Below, one piece after another: positions 1,504 to 15,502 of a stretch of DNA of 16,082 nt. Below the pieces are notes generated by a model that was not told the DNA's origin, searched no databases, and saw nothing but the letters and a program-made list of their open reading frames with translations. This DNA is from a virus, in the UHGV virus genome UHGV-0136597. One strand, given 5' to 3'. Within the stretch, counting starts at the first letter, position 1; each line of letters opens with the position of its first letter. The position numbers were made by a program, and so were the translations under genes.

Positions 1504-2044
1504 TACCAAGCTCCTTCAGTTTCTCTTCAAGTAACTCTTCTGACATATCGGCATAACGAACAGGACCGCCATCAGCGCCAGTTATTTCTGTAGATGTTTG
1601 CTCTTTAAACGCCTGAACAGAAACATGACGCCCGAGCAATTCAAGGTTTTTAACCTTATCAGGCCATTTGATTTTCTTCAGAAGTGCGGCGCTATCTGCT
1701 GATGCCATCTCGACGACATCCATTCCTGATAGCGTTGTACGCCACACCTTAGGCCAGTCTTTAATGGGTTTTAGCTCACCGTTTTGCAGGAGAATGTCGA
1801 GCACATCCATCTGATCGATTTCAAGAAGGCGATTAAGTACGTATTCTGCATTTATTCCAACAGAGTCATTGCGTTGTGCTTTCAATTCGGAGATTCTGAA
1901 TTGTATGTCAGGTTTTGACAGGTTTTCGGATGCGGTACGGTTGGCTGTTTTTGCGCTGTACCCCGCCCGAATAGCCGCTTGCGTGGCATTTAAATCGATG
2001 AGGTACTCGCGACAGAACATTTCTTGCTTGTCGGTGAGTGCCAT
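1457..2044 (-). CDS. Terminase small subunit (P27-type family, not lambda Nu1)
   Basis: 195-aa ORF starting MALTDKQEMFCREYLIDLNATQAAIRAGYS, the conserved N-terminus of this terminase small-subunit family (recalled from memory). Its 3' end overlaps the large-subunit start by 47 nt. Confidence 0.9.
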   Translation of the reverse strand: MALTDKQEMFCREYLIDLNATQAAIRAGYSAKTANRTASENLSKPDIQFRISELKAQRNDSVGINAEYVLNRLLEIDQMDVLDILLQNGELKPIKDWPKVWRTTLSGMDVVEMASADSAALLKKIKWPDKVKNLELLGRHVSVQAFKEQTSTEITGADGGPVRYADMSEELLEEKLKELGNGRRSNQLESKRSDL

Positions 2045-2068
2045 AGTTTTCTCTAGAGGATTTCTTTA

Positions 2069-2302
2069 ATGAACTCAAAGCAAATTTTTTACCGAAATAC
2101 AGGTCATGATAATGAAACTTATATATTCCTGGACAAATTGGACAATGGCTCCTACCAAGTCAGGGCTGGTCATTCGTCGCCTGTGAGCCATTTTGAATGG
2201 GAGGATGATGAAACCATTCAGACAGTGGAAGAGTTTCTAGGTTCTAACCCATCATATACTGAACGTGTTCATCAACTAATTTCTGAGTTTGAAGCAGAAT
2301 AG
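2069..2302 (+). CDS. Hypothetical 77-aa acidic protein, divergent from terS (moron-like)
   Basis: ATG with GAGGA about 10 nt upstream. No signal peptide or recognisable motif. Opposite orientation to the late operon, like lambda bor. Confidence 0.4.
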   Translation: MNSKQIFYRNTGHDNETYIFLDKLDNGSYQVRAGHSSPVSHFEWEDDETIQTVEEFLGSNPSYTERVHQLISEFEAE

Positions 2303-2757
2303 TAATCACCACCCAAGCGACTCAACTGCCGTCTAGTTCATCATCCAAAGGACTAAAAGTAGATTCCTGACATTGAGAACCTCTTTATCCGCTTGTGGGG
2401 ATATCAGTTAAGTTATCCCGTGTAGGGTATAAGCCATTGTCGAGACCACTCATTGAATGGTCTCTGCAATAACCGATGTCTTTCCATCAGTCCGCCACCA
2501 CAAAGAATCTTTTTTGCCATAAGGCTGGAGGTTCATCTTTCAGTGGCTGCCAGTGTTATTTCCCCACTTACTGGCTTGGGTTGTTTCGTGGTACTGCCGT
2601 TAACTGGTGGCGCACAAATTTAGTTAAATCCGTTCTCGCCTGAACTATCTTTTACATACCCGGATTGTGGGGATGTAAATCACGGTTTCATTATCAAGCC
2701 CACCAGTAGATGGGCTTTGTAATGAAGAGTTGTTATGAAAATTGCTCTAAACAAGCA

Positions 2758-3246
2758 TTAATAGCCATCAGAAGTAATCGCTACAGATTTCAATCCCTCA
2801 ATGTCATCCTTGGACAGGGCGAACCATTCACCGTGCTTTCTCTTTGCGGCAAATTTGCGATGAAGCATGTTTTCAGTTTCTCTTCCACCAGGGATCAGGC
2901 ACTCAAGCTTCAAGCAGTCTGGTCCAGAGTTGCCAAGCGATTTGATGCGTTGTGGAATGTTGGATGAATACCCAATTTTGGTTAGCCCAGTTTTCTTCGA
3001 TGACAAAACGTATACCTGAGGAGGTTCTTTTCTCTGGTCTTCCATTACACGTCTCATTGTTGCCATAAGTCCGCCGTGCATCAGCATTTCAACAAAGAAC
3101 GCTGACCGAACACCTGACGACTTAAGCATGCCAGAAAATTCACTTGCCAATTCCATTAACTCTGCGATGTTTTCAGGAACTTTTTGGCAGTTATCTTCCT
3201 TGTATAAGGAAATCATTCTTTGAAGCTTTTCTTCTAATTGGTTCAT
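2758..3246 (-). CDS. T5orf172-domain (GIY-YIG-like) protein with an unknown N-terminal domain
   Basis: C-terminal half (VYVLSSKKTGLTKIGYSSNIPQRIKSL...LHRKFAAKRKHGEWFAL) fits the T5orf172 pattern as I recall it. Start placed at the ATG at 3246 (MNQLEEK; AAGG-containing SD upstream); the ORF-track start at 3282 is a GTG. GC content is visibly lower than the flanks. Confidence 0.7.
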   Translation of the reverse strand: MNQLEEKLQRMISLYKEDNCQKVPENIAELMELASEFSGMLKSSGVRSAFFVEMLMHGGLMATMRRVMEDQRKEPPQVYVLSSKKTGLTKIGYSSNIPQRIKSLGNSGPDCLKLECLIPGGRETENMLHRKFAAKRKHGEWFALSKDDIEGLKSVAITSDGY

Positions 3247-3395
3247 AGCGTCTTTACCTTTTAGAAAGTGAGCCTGTCTCACAGAAAAGCCGCCCCGAGA
3301 TGGTCGCCACCATATACGGCAGTTCTCAGGCTCAACTTTCTGAAAGGCTCGGGTGATGTAATATGCGCGTGAGATGCGCTGTGAAATTCAGATGT

Positions 3396-3421
3396 AAAAA
3401 AAGCCCCGCATCGCGAGGCTC
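3396..3421 (-). terminator. Rho-independent terminator downstream of Rz
   Basis: On the minus strand, AGCCTCGC-GAT-GCGGGGCT stem-loop followed by TTTTTTT, about 30 nt after the Rz stop. Confidence 0.55.
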
Positions 3422-3451
3422 ATTAAATGGACTTTGTGATTTGCAAAAAAA

Positions 3452-3913
3452 TTATTTCAGGCATTGCGTCCTGATGTATTCCTGCAGGTAGTTAACCTGC
3501 GCGGTTATCTTGTCGATTCCACTTCGGAGACGGTAATAATTGAGTTCAGCATCTGCTGTAAGTCCTGGGCTTTCTCCATCGCCCATGCTGCTGGCTCCGG
3601 TCGTTGACTTTGCACAGGTGGCGGCGACTTGCAGGCGCTTACGCCCAGCAGAAACATCAGCACGGAGACTTTCGATAGTCGCGTTAGCATCAGCAAGCTC
3701 CTTTGTATATCTGGCATCGAGTTCTGCTACGTCACGTTGACGCTTCTGCATGTCAGAGATCGTCGCCATAGCCGAATCTAATGCCATAGCGTTTTCGTCG
3801 CGCTGTTTTTTGTATTCAATGGCTTTATTGTGGTAATGATTAGCTGACCAGACGAGAGAACCGAATAAAGTCAGGAGGAAAGCAGAAATAACCAGCTTAT
3901 AGCGAAGTTTCAT
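3452..3913 (-). CDS. Rz: Rz i-spanin
   Basis: Start [27 protein letters not shown] with GGGGTGG SD, overlapping the end of R as in lambda. N-terminal TM segment and coiled-coil-like body; ends ...YLQEYIRTQCLK, resembling lambda Rz. The ORF-track N-terminal extension is rejected. Confidence 0.85.
   Translation of the reverse strand: MKLRYKLVISAFLLTLFGSLVWSANHYHNKAIEYKKQRDENAMALDSAMATISDMQKRQRDVAELDARYTKELADANATIESLRADVSAGRKRLQVAATCAKSTTGASSMGDGESPGLTADAELNYYRLRSGIDKITAQVNYLQEYIRTQCLK
3505..3690 (-). CDS. Rz1: Rz1 o-spanin lipoprotein, embedded in the +1 frame of Rz
   Basis: Embedded ORF starting MLTRLSKVSVLMFLLGVSAC with lipobox-like VSAC, then a proline-rich mature region (KSPPPVQSQRPEPAAW), matching lambda Rz1 architecture. 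Confidence 0.65.
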   Translation of the reverse strand: MLTRLSKVSVLMFLLGVSACKSPPPVQSQRPEPAAWAMEKAQDLQQMLNSIITVSEVESTR

Positions 3914-4373
3914 TAACCACCCCGCCAGCTTCTTTGAATTTGGCAATCAGACTATCGATCTTGTGTTCATACTGACCGTAGCCAGCACCGGGCAATGAAG
4001 CCCAAATATTGCTGCAACGATCAATAGCCTGACGGATATCGCCACGATCAATCATCGGTAAAGCGCCACGCTCTTTAATCTGCTGCAGTGCAACAGCGTC
4101 CTGGCTTTTCGGAGAGAAGTCTTTCAGGCCAAGCTGCTTGCGGTAGGCATCCCACCAACGGGAAAGAAGCTGATAGCGACCGGCTGCTGTTGATTTGAGT
4201 TTTGGGTTTAGCGTGACAAGTTTGCGAGGGTGATCTGAGTAATCAGTGAATAGCTCTCCGCCTACAATGACGTCATAACCATGATTTCTGGTTTTCTGCC
4301 GTCCGTTATCAGTTCCCTCCGACCACGCCAGCATATCGAGGAACGCCTTACGTTGATTATTGATTTCCACCAT
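3897..4373 (-). CDS. R: Endolysin R (lambda-type lytic transglycosylase)
   Basis: 158 aa beginning [53 protein letters not shown], near-identical to lambda R as I recall it. Confidence 0.95.
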
Positions 4374-4680
4374 CTTCTACTCCGGCTTTTTTAGCAGCGA
4401 AGCGTTTGATAAGCGAACCAATCGAGTCAGTACCGATGTAGCCGATGAACACGCTCGTTATATAAGCGAGATTGCTACTTAGTCCGGCGAGGTCGAGAAG
4501 ATCACGAATGAACCAGGCGATAATGGCGCACATCGTTGCGTCGATTACTGTTTTTGTAAACGCACCGCCATTATATCTGCCGCGAAGGTACGCCATTGCA
4601 AACGCAAGGATTGCCCCGATGCCTTGTTCCTTTGCCGCGAGAATGGCGGCTAACAGGTCATTTTTTTCTGGCATCTTCAT
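4357..4680 (-). CDS. S: Holin/antiholin S (dual start Met1/Met3)
   Basis: 107 aa beginning [39 protein letters not shown], near-identical to lambda S. The MKM dual-start motif is present; 3' end overlaps R by 17 nt. Confidence 0.95.
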
Positions 4681-4922
4681 GTCTTACCCCCAATAAGGGG
4701 ATTTGCTCTATTTAATTAGGAATATGGTCGGTTACTGATAGAACAAATCCAGGCTACTGTGTTTAGTAATCAGATTTGTTCGTGACCGATATGCACGGGC
4801 AAAACGGCAGGAGGTTGTTAGGGCAACCTCATGCCACCCGCTTTCACGAAGGTCATGCGTAGAATGCCGCAGCGTAACTATCACTGATGAATTCAGGATA
4901 GCCAGTGGCTACGGCTCAGTTA

Positions 4923-4998
4923 TGGTGCTGGTTAACGGACTTGAACCGCTACCCATTCGCTTACAAGGCGACTGCTCTACCATTGGAGCTAAACCAGC
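4923..4998 (-). tRNA. tRNA-Thr (anticodon UGU), phage-encoded
   Basis: Minus-strand 76 nt: 7-bp acceptor stem GCTGGTT/AACCAGC, D-arm GCTC-CAATGGTA-GAGC, anticodon loop CUUGUAA, 5-nt variable loop, T-arm AGCGG-TTCAAGT-CCGTT, discriminator A and encoded CCA. One G27-A43 mismatch. Hand-folded, not run through a tRNA finder. Confidence 0.55.
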
Positions 4999-5003
4999 AT
5001 ATT

Positions 5004-5078
5004 TGGCGGGACAGCGTGGACTCGAACCACGATAAGAAGGTTAACAGCCTTCCGTAATGACCTTTATACGACTGACCC
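5004..5078 (-). tRNA. tRNA-Asn (anticodon GUU), phage-encoded, atypical
   Basis: Minus-strand 75 nt: anticodon arm GAAGG-CUGUUAA-CCTTC, T-arm CGTGG-TTCGAGT-CCACG, encoded CCA. The acceptor stem has a T-T mismatch and the D-stem is only 3 bp, so it may be divergent or partly degenerate. Confidence 0.45.
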
Positions 5079-5132: not shown

Positions 5133-5645
5133 TTAAACGGTATGATATTTCATTCTGGCGGCCTCAAAAGCCACAGCGGCAAGTTCGGCAGTGTCATGGT
5201 ATCCAAGGTTAATACACTTTCCAGACGCATTAATTATTGCTCTCCATTTCCCGTACTTAGCATCCCAAGACACGCCACGGTATCCAGATTTATTATTCTT
5301 CTGAATTTTCCTGTTTTGCATATTTTCGGAATGAGTGACAAGACGAAGATTTGATATCCGGTTATCTGTTCTTACCCTGTTGATGTGATCAATAAAACCA
5401 TCGGGCATGGTGCCATAAACAATCAACCATGCCAGTCTGTGAGCAGGGTATGCTTTACCATTAATCATAATCATTAAATACCCATCAGAATTTATTGATG
5501 AGCATTTCTTGAAAGCAAAACGAGAGTTCCATGTCAAAGTGGTCCTCTCTCTCCCCTGCCTCCATCTCCAGTGAAAGTCGCCTGATGATGGATTGTAATC
5601 AACAACAGAAAGCACCATTTCTGGCGTTAATTTTATTTCTTTCAT
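5133..5645 (-). CDS. HNH homing-type endonuclease with C-terminal AP2 DNA-binding domain
   Basis: 170 aa with HNH motif (GFIDHINRVRTDNRISNLRLVTHSENMQNR) and AP2-like segment (SGYRGVSWDAKYGKWRAIINASGKCINLGYHDTAELAAVAFEAARMKY). AT-rich relative to the flanks. Confidence 0.85.
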   Translation of the reverse strand: MKEIKLTPEMVLSVVDYNPSSGDFHWRWRQGRERTTLTWNSRFAFKKCSSINSDGYLMIMINGKAYPAHRLAWLIVYGTMPDGFIDHINRVRTDNRISNLRLVTHSENMQNRKIQKNNKSGYRGVSWDAKYGKWRAIINASGKCINLGYHDTAELAAVAFEAARMKYHTV

Positions 5646-9783: not shown

Positions 9784-9816
9784 CAAATAAAAAGGCCTGC
9801 GATTACCAGCAGGCCT
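9784..9816 (-). terminator. Rho-independent terminator, lambda tR2-like
   Basis: On the minus strand, AGGCCTGC-TGGTAATC-GCAGGCCT followed by TTTTTATTT, about 30 nt after the primase-helicase stop. Matches lambda tR2 as I recall it. Confidence 0.75.
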
Positions 9817-9845
9817 GTTACAAGCTCAGTGATGTAGATGGTCAT

Positions 9846-11726
9846 TTAATACTCCGTCACGTTTTCCTGTCGCCACGCCTCGTCATATTCCGATTTCGGC
9901 ATATTGGCGATGTAGCTATATGGCGATCCTGATTCAAGTTGCAGGAACTGGTGCGATTGCTCGTCAAGGAACAACGGGACACCACCTTCCCAACCTTCGC
10001 CGTTACGTTGTTTTTCAAGCATCAAAACAGATGCCGGAGATGCCAGTAGCTGTTCGTCCTTCTCTGACATCTTTTCACCACTCTGAACTCTCTGTAACGC
10101 TCTCTCGCGAGCCTTGTTACGCCAGATGATGAAAAGGTTGTCTGTCAGGTCTGTTATCGCTCCAGAGCCTTTTACGTCCATTTTCCCGGTTGGTTTTTCT
10201 TCGCTGTCTCCTTTTCGCGAGTGAGTAACGAGAATGACGTGGGAGTTTGTTTTGTTTTTGAAGTCGCAAATCGAGTCAACAAACGCCTTCTGCCCGTTAT
10301 AGTCATCGTCGCCTATGCCACATTTCATCAGGCTGTCGATGATGAATAACTGGATCCCGTATCGGCGGCGAGCGTAGTCGAATATTTCGATCAGCCTGTC
10401 GGCTTTCGCCGTTCCGGTCAGACCAAACACCCAAAGTCTTTCGTCATAAAATTTAAATGCAGAGTCAATTTCCAGCACTGGCGGCATCTTGCAGCACGTC
10501 GCCTGACGGGTAAGGCGCTTAAGGAGAATACCAGGCTTCAGCTCAAGTGACGCGATGCACGTCTTCACACCCTGACGCATTGCCTCAAGTGCCATATGCC
10601 CGACAACCTCCGTTTTTCCGTGACCGTTCACACCATTGACCAGCGTCAACTCGGCCTCACGGAACTGGAATTTATCTGCCAGAGATTCCCACGGTGGATT
10701 AAACAGATACTGCTGCTTGCCGTAGAAAGCGTTGATAGTGTCCTGATAAAACTCTCGCGCGCTGTAGAGTTCTTCAGGGTCGAAGTAGGATGCCGTGCCG
10801 ATGTACTGCCAGATTTCATCCTCGGTAACACCGTTCATCAGGCATTCGTTGATGTCTTTGTACGGCAGAGTAACAAGACGGCAACGATGTTCACCGAGTC
10901 GGCTTGCGATTTCCCTTGCGGCTTCACGACCAACATCATCAACGTCCATCGAGATGAATATTTCCTCAAACCTGTCGAGGTTGTGATACTCAAACTCAAT
11001 CCACTGTTGCTTAGCGCCTTTCCCGCCACCAAACGGCACAGATAACGCCGAGATGCCGTATTGCGCATAGCTCATACAATCAATTTCGCCTTCGCAAAGT
11101 ACAACCGCCCTCACGCCAGCGTCCAGAGCCTGCCATCCGAACAGACAAGGTTCGCAATCACCTTCTGCCATAATGACTTTCTTCCCGTCCGGTCGCTCAG
11201 TGCTGATTCGCTTGACCTGCAACAACTCACCATCGCGTTTGTACGGAAGCACCAGTGCATCAAGTTCTCGTTCTCCATTCCACACCTTGCCGCTGACAAC
11301 CTCGTAGCGCTTTACGACTTCTGGCGATATGCCACGCGATTGCAGGTACTCAAGATGGGATTCTGTTCTGGTAACGTAGCGGGCGATTTTCTTGCGGTCA
11401 GGTCTGGAGAATTTCTTCTCACGTTTGGCATCGAAATGGTGATCGTCATCCTTGATTCCGAGAAAGGCTTTCGCTTCCTGCATAGCCTGATGCAGGTTAA
11501 TTCCACGACATGCCATCCACAAATCAAGCATGTCACCGCCGTCTCCCTCAGCGAAATCAGCCCATTTTTTCTTGCCGCTAAGGTTGACCTTAAGGCTGTT
11601 TCCCTTGTCACCGTTAACGTTACCGGCAACCCACTCATGCCCCTCTTTCTTGCCGTTTGGCAACAGGTGCGGAGCCACCCTGTCAACCTGCGCCCAAAGC
11701 AGGTCGCTAAGTTCACTTGGCGTCAT
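9846..11726 (-). CDS. Bifunctional DNA primase/helicase (TOPRIM primase domain plus T7 gp4-like helicase domain)
   Basis: 626 aa with a TOPRIM-like acidic cluster (VVLCEGEIDCMSYAQ), Walker A (NGVNGHGKT), Walker B (LFIIDSLMKCG) and a C-terminal GSGAITDLTDNLFIIWRN segment resembling T7 gp4 helicase. Occupies the position of lambda P. Confidence 0.85.
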   Translation of the reverse strand: MTPSELSDLLWAQVDRVAPHLLPNGKKEGHEWVAGNVNGDKGNSLKVNLSGKKKWADFAEGDGGDMLDLWMACRGINLHQAMQEAKAFLGIKDDDHHFDAKREKKFSRPDRKKIARYVTRTESHLEYLQSRGISPEVVKRYEVVSGKVWNGERELDALVLPYKRDGELLQVKRISTERPDGKKVIMAEGDCEPCLFGWQALDAGVRAVVLCEGEIDCMSYAQYGISALSVPFGGGKGAKQQWIEFEYHNLDRFEEIFISMDVDDVGREAAREIASRLGEHRCRLVTLPYKDINECLMNGVTEDEIWQYIGTASYFDPEELYSAREFYQDTINAFYGKQQYLFNPPWESLADKFQFREAELTLVNGVNGHGKTEVVGHMALEAMRQGVKTCIASLELKPGILLKRLTRQATCCKMPPVLEIDSAFKFYDERLWVFGLTGTAKADRLIEIFDYARRRYGIQLFIIDSLMKCGIGDDDYNGQKAFVDSICDFKNKTNSHVILVTHSRKGDSEEKPTGKMDVKGSGAITDLTDNLFIIWRNKARERALQRVQSGEKMSEKDEQLLASPASVLMLEKQRNGEGWEGGVPLFLDEQSHQFLQLESGSPYSYIANMPKSEYDEAWRQENVTEY

Positions 11727-11830
11727 GATTCCCTCAGATTGAGATTTTTAAACCAGAAATCGACAAACGAAATACTTAACCAGCCGTGGTTATAACCAGC
11801 GACCAGTAGCGATTTGATTTTTGATTTCAT
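11723..11830 (-). CDS. Small coupled ORF (35 aa) between the O-like gene and the primase-helicase
   Basis: ATG 3 nt after the O-like stop, with GGTGA SD; TGA overlaps the helicase ATG (ATGA). Hand-translated MKSKIKSLLVAGYNHGWLSISFVDFWFKNLNLRES. Below the ORF-track size cutoff. Confidence 0.3.
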   Translation of the reverse strand: MKSKIKSLLVAGYNHGWLSISFVDFWFKNLNLRES

Positions 11831-11833
11831 GGT

Positions 11834-12694
11834 TCACCTGTCGAAAAACACGTAGCCAGTTTTCGATACGGTGATTGCGGATGATGGTTTGGATTGTGGT
11901 TGAATAGTTTCTGGCTTCTCGTCGTTCCAGCGTTGACCGTTCAGGTAGCTCGATGGTAACAACCTGTCGAATCCGAACTGCTTACCATTCCTGCATGCGA
12001 TGTCTTCTGCCAGCATCGTGGCAAACTCGCTTGCCGTACCCCTGGTAGTTTTACGCCATTCCCTGAACTGTGTTCTGAATGCCGAAGCTGCGTTTTTCTT
12101 CCCGGCCTTCCGCATGCCTGCACACCAGAATATTTCCTCGAATGCCTTGTCGGTTTCTTCGTGACGGTCAGGTGATTTTTCACACTCCGTCCGAACACTT
12201 TCGGACATAGTGTTTTTATTATTACTTTTTTCTTTTGTAATAGTTTCTTTTGTGTGTCCCTGTTTTGGTGACAGCGCTGTCACCGTTTTGGTGACACTTT
12301 TTGTCACCAATGCAGTGACATTATCACCAGAGTAGTGACACCCTTCGATTTGCCATTCCTCGATGTTCTTGTTAGGCCCGATTTGCTGGCCTTCGCGAAG
12401 GATAACCTTCATCGCGATAAGCTCATTCTTGGCCTTGTTTACCTTCTGTCTTGGCAGCCTGGTAATTTGAGCTAACTGACTATCAGAGATGCGATCCATC
12501 TTTTTACCGTAGCCGTATGTTTTACGGCATATGGCGTGGGCAACCTTGCTCTGATTTTTCGTTAAATCTGCGCCGATAAGCTCTTCATACAGGGCATTTG
12601 CAAGACGGGTATAACCATCTTCAACTTCTGCCACACGACGCTCCACAGGCCGTTGTGAAGGCCTTAAATGTGTTACGGTTGCAAGATTACTCAT
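11834..12694 (-). CDS. O: Replication initiator, lambda O-like N-terminal domain, with the origin inside the gene
   Basis: N-terminal region ([54 protein letters not shown]...[11 protein letters not shown]) parallels lambda O as recalled. Iterons and an AT-rich block lie within the central coding region. C-terminal domain is not lambda-like. Confidence 0.85.
12210..12340. repeat. Origin of replication: about four 19-20 bp palindromic iterons (TGTCACC-N6-GTGACA type) plus adjacent AT-rich block
   Basis: Iteron copies at about 12256-12272, 12278-12296, 12302-12320 and 12321-12340, flanked at 12210-12258 by a T/A-rich stretch, all inside the O-like ORF. Same architecture as lambda ori. Confidence 0.6.
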
Positions 12695-12833
12695 GACCTT
12701 TCTCCTTCTGCATCAGCTTCACTTTTTCCAACTCAGCCCGGAATCGACCAGGCTGCTTGAAGCTGGACAGGAAGCGATCACGTAGTATGTGTTTGTGAAT
12801 TTTGTCCTGGTAAGGACTGAGTTGTTTTGTCAT
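12687..12833 (-). CDS. Small basic ORF (48 aa) between cII and the O-like gene
   Basis: ATG with GGGAG SD 6 nt upstream; last codons overlap the O-like ATG. Hand-translated [48 protein letters not shown]. No motif recognised. Confidence 0.4.
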
Positions 12834-12867
12834 AATTACTCCCGTGGATTGATCCAGTCTTTCTACA

Positions 12868-13146
12868 TTAGGCCTCGAAGAATTCGCCGTTCTTCGGGGC
12901 TTTTTCTTTTGTCAGCATTCTGGCTACTTTCTTAGCCAGTTCCGCCAACTCCTCGTCTTCAACACCCCATTCAAGAACAGCCAGAAGCATTCCCATTTTT
13001 GGGATGAAGCTGTCTTTCCATCGCGAAATTTGCGATTCATTGATCCCTAATGCATCAGCAACCTTTCGCTGACCACGTACAGCAATTCGATTTAGGATGT
13101 TGCTTGTAATTGCATTCGCTTTCTTGCGAGTACTTGTAAGTTGCAT
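12868..13146 (-). CDS. cII: Transcriptional activator CII
   Basis: 92 aa from the internal ATG (MQLTSTRKK...), which carries the lambda-like cII translation-initiation context (AAGGAAATACTTACATATG). Contains QISRWK...[13 protein letters not shown], matching lambda CII. The 121-aa ORF-track version would run through nutR and is rejected. Confidence 0.85.
12873..12910 (+). terminator. Plus-strand rho-independent terminator overlapping the cII 3' end (oop-like antisense RNA terminator)
   Basis: CCTCGAAGAA-TTCGCCG-TTCTTCGGGG (10-bp stem) followed by CTTTTTCTTTT, antisense to the last cII codons, in the position of the lambda oop terminator. Promoter not confidently located. Confidence 0.55.
13100..13113 (+). 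promoter_or_regulatory. Candidate CII-binding site (TTGC-N6-TTGC) of a pRE-like promoter directed toward cI
   Basis: TTGCTTGTAATTGC on the plus strand inside the cII N-terminal coding region, oriented to transcribe antisense through cro toward cI, as for lambda pRE. Confidence 0.35.
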
Positions 13147-13203
13147 ATGTAAGTATTTCCTTAACAAATAAGAAGTTATGCGCACCAACTGATGCGCGTT
13201 GTA

Positions 13204-13248
13204 TTCCCGCATTTCGGCGGGAATAAGGACCATGACTGTTAAAGAGCG
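13204..13248 (-). promoter_or_regulatory. nutR (boxA plus boxB) between cro and cII
   Basis: Minus strand reads CGCTCTTTAACA (boxA consensus), then a spacer, then the hairpin TTCCCGC-CGAAAT-GCGGGAA (boxB). The same boxB hairpin recurs in nutL. Confidence 0.55.
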
Positions 13249-13254
13249 GTGTTA

Positions 13255-13449
13255 CTATTTGTTTTTCTTGTTGCTTGGGAAAGGACGAACTTCCTCTCCA
13301 ATCACACTGCCATCAGGCTTTACCGTAACCATAATGTTACGGCCTGCCAGAATGGCCTTGCTGATAGCGCACTGGATTACACCAAAGTCACTGGCTGCTT
13401 TAGCCTGTCCATGGATTTTGGCGTAATCGGCAAGTGTCATTCGAATCAT
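13255..13449 (-). CDS. cro: Cro repressor
   Basis: 64 aa from the third Met ([33 protein letters not shown]...SNKKNK), paralleling lambda Cro. GGAGAG SD is correctly spaced for this ATG. Confidence 0.85.
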
Positions 13450-13480
13450 ATGCACTCTCCGTTATTAACCATGAACAAAG

Positions 13481-13555: not shown

Positions 13556-14272
13556 ATGGAAAATAAAAAATCACTGACGACAGAACAGCTCGAAGACGCT
13601 AAGCGGCTTAAGGCTTTGTATGAGTCAAAAAAGAAAGAATTGGGAATAACCCAATACTCAATCGCTGATGAACTGGGTATCACCCAAGGAGCGGTAGGGC
13701 ATTATCTTAATGGCAGAAACGCGCTAAACGTTGAGGTTGCATCTGGTTTTGCACGATTGTTGCAAGTCTCAATTGCTGATTTTAGCCAGTCAATTGCTGC
13801 CAAGGTTGCAGAACAGGCAGAAAGCCTTAAGAGCGATGCCAACGTAAGGTATGCAGGGGAATACAGAGCAGGAAAGAGGTATCCGGTGTTAAGCAGTATC
13901 CAGGCTGGCTCGTGGTGTGAAGCATGCGAACCATACACCATTAAAGACATAGATGTTTGGCTTGAGTCTGACGCGCATATTCAAGGTAATGCGTTTTGGC
14001 TTAAAGTGGAAGGTGATTCAATGACGGCACCGGTTGGGTTAAGCATTCCAGAGGGAACATTCGTTCTTTTCGATACCGGAAGGGAGGCGATCAACGGCAG
14101 CTTGGTCATAGCAAAACTTTCTGACTCTAACGAAGCAACATTCAAGAAGCTGATAATCGACGGCGGAAATAAATACCTCAAGGGACTTAATCCTGCATGG
14201 CCTCTCGTGCCAATCAATGGAAACTGCAAGATTATAGGCGTTGCAATTGAGACAAAACTAAGGCTGGTTTGA
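13556..14272 (+). CDS. cI: CI prophage repressor (HTH N-terminal domain plus S24/LexA-like autopeptidase C-terminal domain)
   Basis: 238 aa with an HTH segment (ITQYSIADELGITQGAVGHYLNG) and a C-terminal domain (FWLKVEGDSMTAPVGLSIPEGTFVLF...ATFKKLIIDGGNKYLKGLNPAWP) resembling the P22 c2 / lambda cI cleavage domain. Divergent from cro across the operators. Confidence 0.9.
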   Translation: MENKKSLTTEQLEDAKRLKALYESKKKELGITQYSIADELGITQGAVGHYLNGRNALNVEVASGFARLLQVSIADFSQSIAAKVAEQAESLKSDANVRYAGEYRAGKRYPVLSSIQAGSWCEACEPYTIKDIDVWLESDAHIQGNAFWLKVEGDSMTAPVGLSIPEGTFVLFDTGREAINGSLVIAKLSDSNEATFKKLIIDGGNKYLKGLNPAWPLVPINGNCKIIGVAIETKLRLV

Positions 14273-14289
14273 TCACGCAAGGGGCGATT

Positions 14290-14658
14290 ATGGTTGGAAC
14301 CGCTATAGCAAGCTTTTTTGGGATGTTGGCAATCTCGACAATTTACGTCTTAGCGCATGCTTTTATTGCGAAATCTCTATCAGAAAAAATAAGCCAGGCT
14401 TGGGCGCATAGATCAGCTCGTTTCATGATTCTTGTGATCATAGCAATACAAGGGATATCTGCATTTATCCTCTATGGATCAAGCTTATACCTATTGTATC
14501 AAGGCGCGACATTTACGCCTTACACCAGTGATTACGGAACTCTATACGATGGTAGTGAAGACATCACTGTGGCTTGGATCGTCTTTGGTTTATCTATGGC
14601 CGTGTCTGTTGTAGCAGACATCATTAAGGTAATTCTCGTCTTAACCTTCGCTGACTAA
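14290..14658 (+). CDS. Hypothetical 3-TM membrane protein co-directional with cI (rexAB-slot accessory gene)
   Basis: ATG 17 nt after the cI stop with AAGGGG SD (the ORF-track TTG start at 14269 is rejected). 122 aa with three long hydrophobic segments. No family recognised. Confidence 0.6.
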   Translation: MVGTAIASFFGMLAISTIYVLAHAFIAKSLSEKISQAWAHRSARFMILVIIAIQGISAFILYGSSLYLLYQGATFTPYTSDYGTLYDGSEDITVAWIVFGLSMAVSVVADIIKVILVLTFAD

Positions 14659-14876: not shown

Positions 14877-14918
14877 GGCTCTTTAACATTGATGGGATTG
14901 TCCCGCCGAAATGCGGGA
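14877..14918 (+). promoter_or_regulatory. nutL (boxA plus boxB) in the PL leader
   Basis: GGCTCTTTAACA (boxA-like), then a spacer, then hairpin TCCCGC-CGAAAT-GCGGGA, identical in stem and loop to the nutR boxB. Confidence 0.55.
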
Positions 14919-15229: not shown

Positions 15230-15502
15230 ATGACAGTAGTCATTACATATCTGGCTGACGATAACGCCAGAAATCGCCGCAGAGCACGCAGACAGGCTCA
15301 ACGTGAACAGGCAATGCAAGAGCAGCGACTGGCGCGAAAAATTGCGCTAAAGCTCTCTGGTTGCGTCAGAGCAGACAAAGCAGCATCACTTGGCAGCCTT
15401 CTCAGCAAGAAGGCAGATGAATGCAGTGGAAGTATTTGCCTGCCAAACGTAGCCATTTACTCGGCAGGCTACCGGAAATCAAAACAACTGACGGCGAGGT
15501 AA
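15230..15502 (+). CDS. N: N-like transcription antiterminator (P22 gene 24-like) with an arginine-rich motif
   Basis: 90 aa from the ATG at 15230 (GGAGG SD 6 nt upstream): MTVVITYLADDNARNRRRARRQAQREQ...LPNVAIYSAGYRKSKQLTAR. The arginine-rich N-terminus and C-terminal tail resemble P22 gp24 as recalled. The ORF-track N-terminal extension is rejected. Confidence 0.8.
   Translation: MTVVITYLADDNARNRRRARRQAQREQAMQEQRLARKIALKLSGCVRADKAASLGSLLSKKADECSGSICLPNVAIYSAGYRKSKQLTAR

Follow-up and report, generated by a model that had tools for sequence, protein, structure and literature searches.

How does a lambdoid phage initiate replication when it carries a relative of the lambda O gene, with an origin inside that gene, but no P? 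The question is raised by a locus in UHGV virus genome UHGV-0136597, of which we analysed a stretch of 16,082 nucleotides (hereafter, the window), and it brings with it a second, namely whether the two very short open reading frames (ORFs) adjoining the initiator gene are genes at all. On its minus strand the window encodes orf48, an O-like initiator, an ORF of 35 codons and a 626-aa primase-helicase, at the coordinates given in Table 1, and the presence there of an origin-in-gene initiator together with a phage primase-helicase is confirmed. The region very probably represents a replication module of the ES18 type, through which a lambdoid phage of E. coli supplies both an initiator and its own helicase; we take such a pairing to be the IH-type in the classification of Weigel and Seitz. 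The four ORFs follow cII and occupy the usual early-right slot (pR, cro, nutR, cII, orf48, initiator, orf35, primase-helicase, nin), and cII, Cro, CI and N were all identified in the window. Each of the four start codons is preceded by a Shine-Dalgarno-like sequence (GGGAG, AAGGAG, AGGTGA and GAGGG), and an Rfam scan of the module at the gathering threshold returned no RNA family.

Table 1. Coordinates of the replication module and its parts in the window, with the evidence for each assignment.
Feature	Position	Strand	Evidence or remark
T7-gp4-like primase-helicase, 626 aa	9846..11726	-	phrog_239, E 2e-171
SF4 (DnaB/gp4-type) helicase domain (residues 355-594)	9945..10664	-	AAA_25 and DnaB_C
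TOPRIM primase catalytic core (residues 209-296; catalysis predicted)	10839..11102	-	Toprim_2, E 3e-12
35-aa ORF, ES18 gp60 homologue, phrog_21848	11830..11723	-	profile match, E 4e-26
O-like replication initiator, 286 aa	12694..11834	-	PF04492 and TIGR01610
Initiator C-terminal half (residues 163-286)	11837..12208	-	specific to helicase system; phrog_33384
Palindrome GTCCGAA-N4-TTCGGAC	12189..12206	.	repeat I5; flanks AT-rich block
AT-rich block, presumed DNA-unwinding element and mosaic crossover point	12205..12254	.	GC 22-25% (0.225-0.25)
Four 19-bp dyad iterons, TGTCACY-N5-RGTGACA	12255-12273, 12278-12296, 12302-12320, 12322-12340	.	pattern match, repeat families D1/D2
N-terminal origin-binding domain (residues 20-114; binding predicted)	12353..12637	-	Phage_rep_O profile positions 1-95 of 95
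orf48, 48 aa, DUF2740 / phrog_1913	12833..12687	-	Pfam PF10872, E 9e-29

Nothing in this layout is new. The module is already annotated in Salmonella phages ES18 and epsilon34, coliphage mEp043 and Shigella phage Sf101, which share the gene order and coupling of the window and a 626-aa primase-helicase. Over positions 9800-12990 the DNA is 98.3% identical to that of mEp043 and Sf101, which are viable phages; these two also have orf48 and an initiator N-half with TGTCAC iterons, whereas ES18 and epsilon34 combine a lambda-type N-half and TCCCTC iterons with another small ORF upstream (gp58, 53 aa). Between ES18 and the window, amino acid identity is 94% for the helicase and 94% for gp60. Our comparison with ES18 is based on its GenBank annotation (AY736146), in which genes 58-61 have the same layout, gp59 is described as O-like with an internal rep_origin 'similar to lambda ori', gp60 is of unknown function, and gp61 is a 'putative primase/helicase; similar to phage T7 gene 4'. 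Gene order, internal origin and similarity to T7 gene 4 were annotated there two decades ago, and are no discovery of ours. The module of epsilon34 is annotated as in ES18 (PMC2629481), and O homologues partnered by ES18-type primase-helicases have been described (PMC10307801). We found no experiment on the ES18-type module in the literature, and for the related 'Eru' types of Stx phages the replication proteins are stated to be wholly uncharacterised (PMC8951638).

An earlier note, made from the DNA sequence alone, had attributed to the initiator a lambda O-type N-terminal domain and an origin within the gene, composed of four palindromic iterons and an AT-rich block, and both attributions are borne out. 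Residues 20-114 match Pfam PF04492 Phage_rep_O (E 1e-37; 128.8 bits against a cut-off of 28.7), the protein matches TIGR01610 (E 2e-30; 105.3 bits against 45.5), and its identity with lambda O, 49%, is confined to residues 1-156. With the pattern TGTCACYNNNNNRGTGACA and up to 2 mismatches, four iterons were found where 0.14 matches were expected; none of 200 shuffled sequences reached four, and the window holds no further match elsewhere. Their start-to-start spacing of 20/24/23 bp is that of oriλ, with which they align iteron for iteron against the four annotated lambda iterons. The adjoining AT-rich block is near-identical to the AT-rich region of lambda, so that the gene, like lambda O, contains iterated dyad sites and an AT-rich region in its own coding sequence, at the same operon position. 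The palindrome on the far side of that block (12189-12206) has a counterpart at the equivalent position of oriλ, which is not annotated in the lambda record consulted.

The iterons themselves differ from those of lambda (TGTCAC in the window, TCCCTC in lambda), and their type covaries perfectly with that of the N-terminal domain: 53 of 53 genes for the window type, 2 of 2 for the lambda type, and 19 of 19 for the HTH_36 type, which has palindromes of its own. Homologues lacking the iterons, which the note had named as counter-evidence, were not encountered among the 53 genes with a window-type N-domain, and what variation exists among these copies falls almost entirely within the central 5 bp. 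The repeats at 12255-12340 do encode a repetitive peptide (given as 17 residues), and one might regard them as nothing but a coding repeat for a flexible, VT-rich linker of the initiator, the true origin lying elsewhere. We consider this highly improbable: coding has no need of dyad symmetry, the repeats agree in position, number and spacing with the experimentally defined iterons of lambda and covary with the type of DNA-binding domain in all 53 cases, and the AT-rich block and palindrome come next, as they do in oriλ.

Beyond residue 156, the initiator has no significant similarity to lambda O, and a P-interacting C-half was not recognised; apart from a short tail, the C-halves of the two proteins are unrelated. 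No Pfam family matched the C-half, searches of the PDB by sequence and by profile returned nothing for the whole initiator or for its C-half, and an AlphaFold model of the C-half from a seven-sequence alignment gave three helices at a poor pLDDT of 56. The C-half terminates in a tail of 16 residues, and when the profiles of window-type and DnaT-like-type initiator C-domains were compared, a 20-residue tail was the sole part in common. A conserved C-terminal tail is also common to otherwise unrelated initiators.

The significance of this second half becomes apparent from a natural two-by-two set of chimeras formed by lambda, ES18, PhiR12_1 and the window. ES18 gp59 has a C-half colinear and near-identical with that of the window behind a lambda-type N-half, while PhiR12_1 has a window-type N-half joined to the lambda C-half and followed by P. 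The 'O' and 'P' of the Stx 'Eru5' type and of vB_EcoP_24B supply a further combination: they resemble the window in the O C-half, the 35-aa ORF and the helicase, with approximately 97% DNA identity up to position 12218, but differ in an HTH_36 N-domain that has 21-bp palindromic repeats of its own (1-5 copies). The identical C-half is found joined to three different N-terminal domains, upstream of near-identical helicases, and homology with the Stx phages and PhiR12_1 ends at 12218-12225, inside the AT-rich block. As far as sequence comparison can tell, the N-terminal half and the iterons together set origin specificity, and the C-half travels with the helicase system, that is, with λ P in PhiR12_1 and with the 35-aa ORF and primase-helicase in the window and ES18. 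The proposal in the earlier note that P had been replaced by a gp4-like enzyme stands, with a refinement; P is absent and a TOPRIM and SF4 gp4-like protein is present instead, but P was not exchanged alone, the C-half of O having been swapped too. What our analysis adds to the existing annotations is this reading of the natural swap, by which the C-half of O, and not P alone, would define the helicase system, with a crossover in the AT-rich block.

The primase-helicase itself is related to T7 gp4 and to mitochondrial Twinkle, with which it shares a TOPRIM core, a linker and an SF4 helicase in one chain and conserved catalytic motifs. Residues 192-539 match the T7 gp4 structure 5IKN (E 2.7e-23), matches to 5IKN, 6N7I and 1Q57 in the PDB range from E 1e-21 to 1e-23, and Twinkle follows at E 6e-14. 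Identity is low, at about 25% across these relatives and 25.6% with T7 by tblastn (E 7e-19), but the TOPRIM motifs CEGEID, DVDD and KDINE align with EGEID, DMDE and KDANE of T7 and show no variation among homologues of 61-94% identity. In the helicase domain, the Walker A (GHGKT) and Walker B (IIDS) motifs together with H502 and R536 likewise align with T7 gp4 and are invariant in homologues. The protein has, in sum, a TOPRIM domain with Glu and DxD, and an SF4 domain with Walker A and B, the motif H3 histidine and an arginine finger. The window differs from T7 in that it comes from a temperate phage, would have a theta origin defined by an initiator, and has no cognate phage polymerase, no polymerase domain having been found among the window genes scanned.

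A second difference from T7 gp4 concerns the N-terminal domain, which is without a Cys4 zinc site. Pfam returned nothing for the first 200 residues; the domain shows homology to the zinc-finger part of DnaG (positions 27-155 of the TIGR01391 model), yet residues 26-70 contain no cysteine and a single histidine, and hence neither a CHC2 nor a Cys4 site is possible. Template-directed priming by T7 gp4 depends on its zinc-binding domain, and the Twinkle of metazoans lacks both the zinc ligands and primase activity. The missing ligands could thus mean that the protein acts solely as a helicase and has an inactive primase half, as in metazoan Twinkle, in which case the phage would avoid DnaB and DnaC but need DnaG. 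There is a precedent in P22, whose gp12 helicase cooperates with the DnaG of the host (Wickner 1984, as cited in PMC8022706). We nevertheless think such a loss unlikely, since the acidic TOPRIM residues E212/E214/D216, D261/D263/D264 and D291 are all kept, and are invariant in homologues 61-94% identical, and since the N-terminal domain, although zinc-less, is highly conserved, which argues for a retained function. An active primase-helicase remains our preferred reading. The P22 system is otherwise comparable in that genes 18 and 12 pair a lambdoid O-like initiator with a replicative helicase of the phage and not with a loader (PMC10307801, PMC8022706), but P22 gp12 is DnaB-like, lacks a primase domain and relies on host DnaG, whereas the protein in the window is gp4-like with a fused TOPRIM. 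Relative to lambda, the window has neither P nor Ren, and a phage helicase-primase takes the place of recruited host DnaB. Host DnaB and DnaC should accordingly be dispensable to the phage. Host DnaG, which the note had likewise taken to be bypassed, is probably not needed either, but this is the weaker part of the argument, because the zinc-finger-like domain of the primase is without zinc ligands.

The initiation pathway that we envisage is modelled on lambda. The winged-helix N-terminal domain of the O-like protein would bind the four dyad iterons in its own gene, and the resulting nucleoprotein complex would destabilise the adjoining AT-rich block. In lambda, the C-half of O recruits the P-DnaB complex. 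Co-inheritance, which is what the chimeras document, suggests that the window-type C-half recruits the phage's own hexameric gp4-like helicase; this would unwind the origin, the TOPRIM domain would make primers and host Pol III would extend them.

There remain the two small ORFs, which the note had regarded as possible regulators or linkers, each coupled to its neighbours by start and stop codons. The coupling is as described: the last 8 nt of orf48 coincide with the beginning of the initiator gene (ATGAGTAA), and the 35-aa ORF starts 3 nt past the O stop codon and overlaps the helicase start with its own stop (ATGA). Both appear to be real genes under purifying selection, because pS lies well above pN in the annotated frame only and both ORFs are intact wherever this could be checked. 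For orf48, comparison with L170 gave a pS of 0.50 and a pN of 0.20 in the annotated frame, and stops in the other two. Located between cII and the initiator, it is a DUF2740 protein (99.4 bits with PF10872, cut-off 27) and the long-known 'orf48' of HK022 and P22, annotated in HK022 record U02466 as 'orf48, unknown, well conserved in P22'. Its DNA is 100% identical in HK022, HK620 and VT2-Sakai, all of which have other O genes; orf48 is part of an independent mosaic unit on the cII side, occurs ahead of many O types, and has no fixed link to the helicase.

The 35-aa ORF, on the other hand, constantly accompanies helicases of this clade. It lies immediately ahead of the primase-helicase gene, is recognised by the phrog_21848 profile, and is intact, with neither of the defects that the note had named as counter-evidence (frameshift or stop), in 74 of 74 viral contigs and 10 of 10 genome loci (counting loci with enough upstream sequence to check), some of them with unrelated initiators. 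Its presence in all of these loci, and its absence from RefSeq PGAP annotation, are the second addition that we make to what was known. Amino acid identity is 49-51% where pS is approximately 0.8, dN/dS is approximately 0.2-0.3 where computable, and an invariant core is retained (LL-AGYN-G-L--FV). A scan of viral contigs with the protein alignment recovered identical copies only, and an AlphaFold model of the peptide alone, from a single sequence, was one long helix (pLDDT 81), which we judged uninformative.

One explanation for this ORF, and perhaps for orf48, is that it is a spacer for translational coupling, in which the hand-over of ribosomes matters and the peptide has no function. Stop and start codons of adjoining genes lie close together in every locus; the 'LR' codons conserved at the C-terminal end (CTGAGG; CGGAG in relatives) also serve as the Shine-Dalgarno sequence for the helicase, and the ORF is missing from a related Pseudomonas phage module, 39% identical, which indicates that the helicase family has no universal need of it. 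A functionless spacer is nonetheless quite improbable, for the ORF is 35 codons long wherever the annotated ATG serves as start, its core lies away from the Shine-Dalgarno sequence and is kept even though pS is saturated, dN/dS is low, and the excess of pS over pN is confined to the one frame. We consider that the protein most likely assists helicase loading or regulation as a small accessory factor, and that translation of its ORF also carries ribosomes over from the initiator to the helicase. More tentatively, and as a possibility to which we give rather less than even weight, it could be an obligatory partner of the gp4-like primase-helicase in enterobacterial temperate phages. It would then act as a minimal adaptor or loader, putting the helicase onto the opened origin in concert with the conserved initiator C-tail; alternatively, it could be a small regulator, or a peptide directed at the host, whose synthesis is matched to that of the helicase.

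Two further ideas were considered and set aside. In the window clade the O stop codon is a TGA in frame with the 35-aa ORF, but fusion of the two proteins by readthrough is not a conserved feature, as spacing and frame differ in L170 (a 4-nt gap) and in L172 and SaltyDalty (an ATGA overlap). Mimicry of the initiator tail by the 35-aa protein, suggested by D-x-R-like ends in both, is unsupported, since arginine codons (AGG/CGG) that make up the Shine-Dalgarno sequence of the gene downstream account for the resemblance at the RNA level.

The ES18-type module is present in 520 of 5426 complete E. coli genomes (~10%) and, through 'Eru5', in Stx-converting phages, and being so common it bears on prophage induction and on the replication of toxin phages. 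The helicase gene of 24B, among the latter, carries an intein (Hint and LAGLIDADG).

The window is a lambdoid early region in reverse orientation, with the CI repressor and an N-type antiterminator both on the plus strand and the replication genes on the minus strand (see table). The junctions match the earlier note, which had described the two micro-ORFs as start/stop-coupled to their neighbours: the end of orf48 and the start of the O-like initiator overlap by 8 nt (ATGAGTAA), the initiator stop lies 3 nt from the start of the 35-aa ORF, and the stop of the latter shares ATGA with the helicase start. Each of the four start codons has its own Shine-Dalgarno-like sequence. An 18-nt hairpin, TCCCGCCGAAATGCGGGA, recurs in identical form in each early transcript, and the two copies probably serve the antiterminator as boxB of nutR and nutL; with boxB at nutR, the 121-aa cII ORF call (from 13233) is too long and the true start is at 13149.

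Features of the early region and replication module in the window
Feature	Position	Strand	Description
N-type antiterminator	15230-15502	+	
nutL boxB hairpin (probable)	14901-14918	+	18 nt
ORF overlapping cI stop	14269-14658	+	122-129 aa
cro	13455..13255	-	Pfam Cro
nutR boxB hairpin (probable)	13205-13222	-	18 nt
cII	13149..12868	-	Phage_CII
Terminator-like hairpin	12870-12902	+	14 pairs; T-run to about 12912
orf48	12833..12687	-	48 aa; Pfam DUF2740
O-like initiator	12694..11834	-	286 aa
Four 19-bp iterons	12255-73, 12278-96, 12302-20, 12322-40		TGTCACY-N5-RGTGACA
Short palindrome after AT-rich block	12189-12206		
35-aa ORF	11830..11723	-	
Primase-helicase	11726..9846	-	626 aa
tRNA-Asn(GTT)	5004-5078	-	
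tRNA-Thr(TGT)	4923-4998	-	

The earlier observation is confirmed and its interpretation supported, but the replication module is already known. The GenBank record of phage ES18 has the same layout: a small ORF (gp58), gp59 ('similar to phage lambda gpO', with a rep_origin 'similar to lambda ori'), the 108-nt gp60 of unknown function, and gp61 ('putative primase/helicase; similar to phage T7 gene 4'). The annotation of epsilon34 is the same (PMC2629481), and coliphage mEp043 and Shigella phage Sf101 are 98.3% identical to the window over 3.2 kb, from helicase to cII. The class is the initiator-helicase of Weigel and Seitz, as cited in PMC11131426; the same helicase is contained in the Stx-phage replication type Eru5, about which, according to the authors, nothing is known from experiments (PMC8951638). 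Of 5426 complete E. coli genomes, 520 have the module, 169 of them in full length.

The proposed lambda O-type N-terminal domain was confirmed by matches of initiator residues 20-114 to Phage_rep_O and TIGR01610 and by 49% identity to lambda O up to residue 156, past which we saw no similarity between the two proteins. Pattern search and alignment with oriλ likewise bore out an internal origin of four palindromic iterons and an AT-rich block. Allowing up to two mismatches, the iteron pattern matches the window four times, always at the origin (0.14 expected; 0/200 shuffles reached four). Start-to-start spacing in gene direction is 20, 24 and 23 bp, exactly that of the four annotated lambda iterons (39034, 39054, 39078 and 39101), and in a three-way alignment the iterons of the window, oriλ and ES18 fall upon one another. 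The block that follows, ACACAAAAGAaACTATTACAAAAGAAAAAAG, where GC drops to 0.225-0.25, is almost the same as the lambda AT-rich region. Spacing, alignment and AT-rich block together indicate the architecture of oriλ with a different iteron sequence.

Comparison of 74 loci (72 IMG/VR contigs with a near-identical helicase and readable upstream sequence, the window and ES18) revealed three initiator N-terminal types on one common C-terminal region of ~125 residues. The window type (53 loci) has its four iterons in 53/53 genes, so that a search for iteron loss among homologues found none; of the single-position changes in nine variant copies, one affects an arm and the other eight the central 5 bp. 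The lambda type (ES18 and epsilon34) has TCCCTC iterons, and the HTH_36 type (19 loci, Stx phages) has 1-5 copies of a 21-bp palindrome, GGGGCAGGAGCTGCCCC (5252-5317 in the vB_EcoP_24B locus), encoding GGAGAAR heptads, such that protein length varies from 243 to 272 aa. Window-type iterons never occur in lambda-type or HTH_36-type genes among the 74 loci; iterons and DNA-binding domain covary.

The reverse combination occurs in a natural chimera, phage PhiR12_1. Down to 12225 its DNA is 99.8% identical to that of the window, with an N-half and iterons of the window type; its initiator continues with the C-half of lambda, and lambda P and Ren come next. The crossover maps to the AT-rich block, at the encoded peptide TKETITKEK. 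With PhiR12_1, the two-by-two set that also includes lambda, ES18 and the window is complete, and in it the O C-half is co-inherited with the helicase system, here the 35-aa ORF and the helicase. The chimeras agree with the classical division of labour, in which origin recognition belongs to the N-half of O and recruitment of the helicase machinery to its C-half; we infer that the C-half makes the recruiting contact. The extreme C-terminal tail follows the helicase clade, even on a DnaT-like C-domain (L169). The tail of lambda O (TASKPKLDLTNTDWIYGVDL) also aligns with that of the window initiator in the last 20 alignment columns, the remaining C-halves being unrelated; this likeness may reflect a shared docking motif or constraint from the next gene's ribosome-binding site.

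Domain and structure matches confirmed the suggested bifunctional TOPRIM/gp4-like protein. The 626-aa product contains Toprim_2 (residues 209-296) and AAA_25/DnaB_C (355-594), matches phrog_239 'DNA primase/helicase', and directly matches T7 gp4 structures 5IKN, 6N7I and 1Q57 (E 1e-21 to 1e-23) and Twinkle (E 6e-14) over both domains, with 25.6% identity to T7 (tblastn). The TOPRIM acidic residues, Walker A and B, H502 and R536 align with T7 and are invariant among homologues 61-94% identical. Against the DnaG model, residues 26-143 align with its N-terminal portion, zinc finger included; residues 26-70 have no cysteine and one histidine, hence the zinc site is absent, and this zinc-less domain is itself strongly conserved. 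The homologue in Stx phage vB_EcoP_24B ('P', 1813-4719, 968 aa) carries in its helicase ATPase region a ~340-aa insertion with Hint and LAGLIDADG, an intein with homing endonuclease that is absent from the window protein.

By analogy with lambda, P22 and T7, the initiator would assemble on the iterons and then open the AT-rich block, its C-half would bring the phage hexameric helicase, and the TOPRIM domain would prime for elongation by host Pol III. Independence of DnaB/DnaC is likely, with P22 gp12 as precedent; independence of DnaG is plausible given the intact TOPRIM site, and uncertain because the N-terminal domain is zinc-less.

The possibility that the 35-aa ORF is real is supported by its intactness in all loci checked and a frame-specific coding signature. 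Frameshifts and stops were sought and none seen in 74/74 viral loci (four variants, each of 35 codons) and 10/10 genome loci of other species (Shimwellia, Pseudocitrobacter, Pseudescherichia, Morganella, Enterobacter, two Pantoea, E. coli/Shigella remnants); phages SaltyDalty and Fraca also have it. At several loci the helicase has just 59-66% identity and the initiator an unrelated N-terminal domain, yet the ORF keeps its place immediately upstream of the helicase. Amino-acid identity is 49-51% in comparisons whose synonymous sites are saturated (pS about 0.8), and dN/dS is about 0.2-0.3 where computable; in the other two frames pS does not exceed pN in the more diverged comparisons, is slightly greater against epsilon34, and nearly all alternative frames contain stops. 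The invariant core is K2, K6, LL, AGYN, G, L, FV, F and LR; conservation of the terminal LR may act at the RNA level, since its codons double as the helicase Shine-Dalgarno. A Pseudomonas phage module whose helicase is 39% identical lacks the ORF, which is therefore clade-specific, not universal in the helicase family. PGAP leaves it unannotated in E. coli genomes. Prophage remnants in E. coli ECMA0423 and Shigella flexneri SFBU1023 keep just the last ~50 initiator codons, the 35-aa ORF and a 619-aa helicase ORF, whose match covers only residues 1-372.

For orf48, also suggested as a possible gene, the DUF2740 match and in-frame substitutions lend support: against a diverged copy (L170), pS is 0.50 and pN 0.20 in its own frame, with stops in the other two. 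Its DNA is 100% identical to HK022 'orf48', annotated in the 1990s as 'sequence well conserved in phage P22; unknown', and the same sequence occurs in HK620, VT2-Sakai and others, all with different O genes; homology on this side extends 7 nt into the O gene, stopping at 12687. Coding signature and sharing among different O genes make orf48 a real gene and an independent mosaic unit. We see nothing to support the label 'tail protein' that PHROGs and RefSeq phage records give it.

The strong plus-strand terminator-like hairpin is antisense to the cII 3' end, where lambda has its oop RNA terminator; a promoter to match it would fall within the orf48 5' end. The ORF overlapping the cI stop, at the usual site of lysogenic-conversion or exclusion genes, has no Pfam match; its product appears hydrophobic by eye and is possibly a membrane protein. 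The two tRNA genes are adjacent and lie past the nin region.
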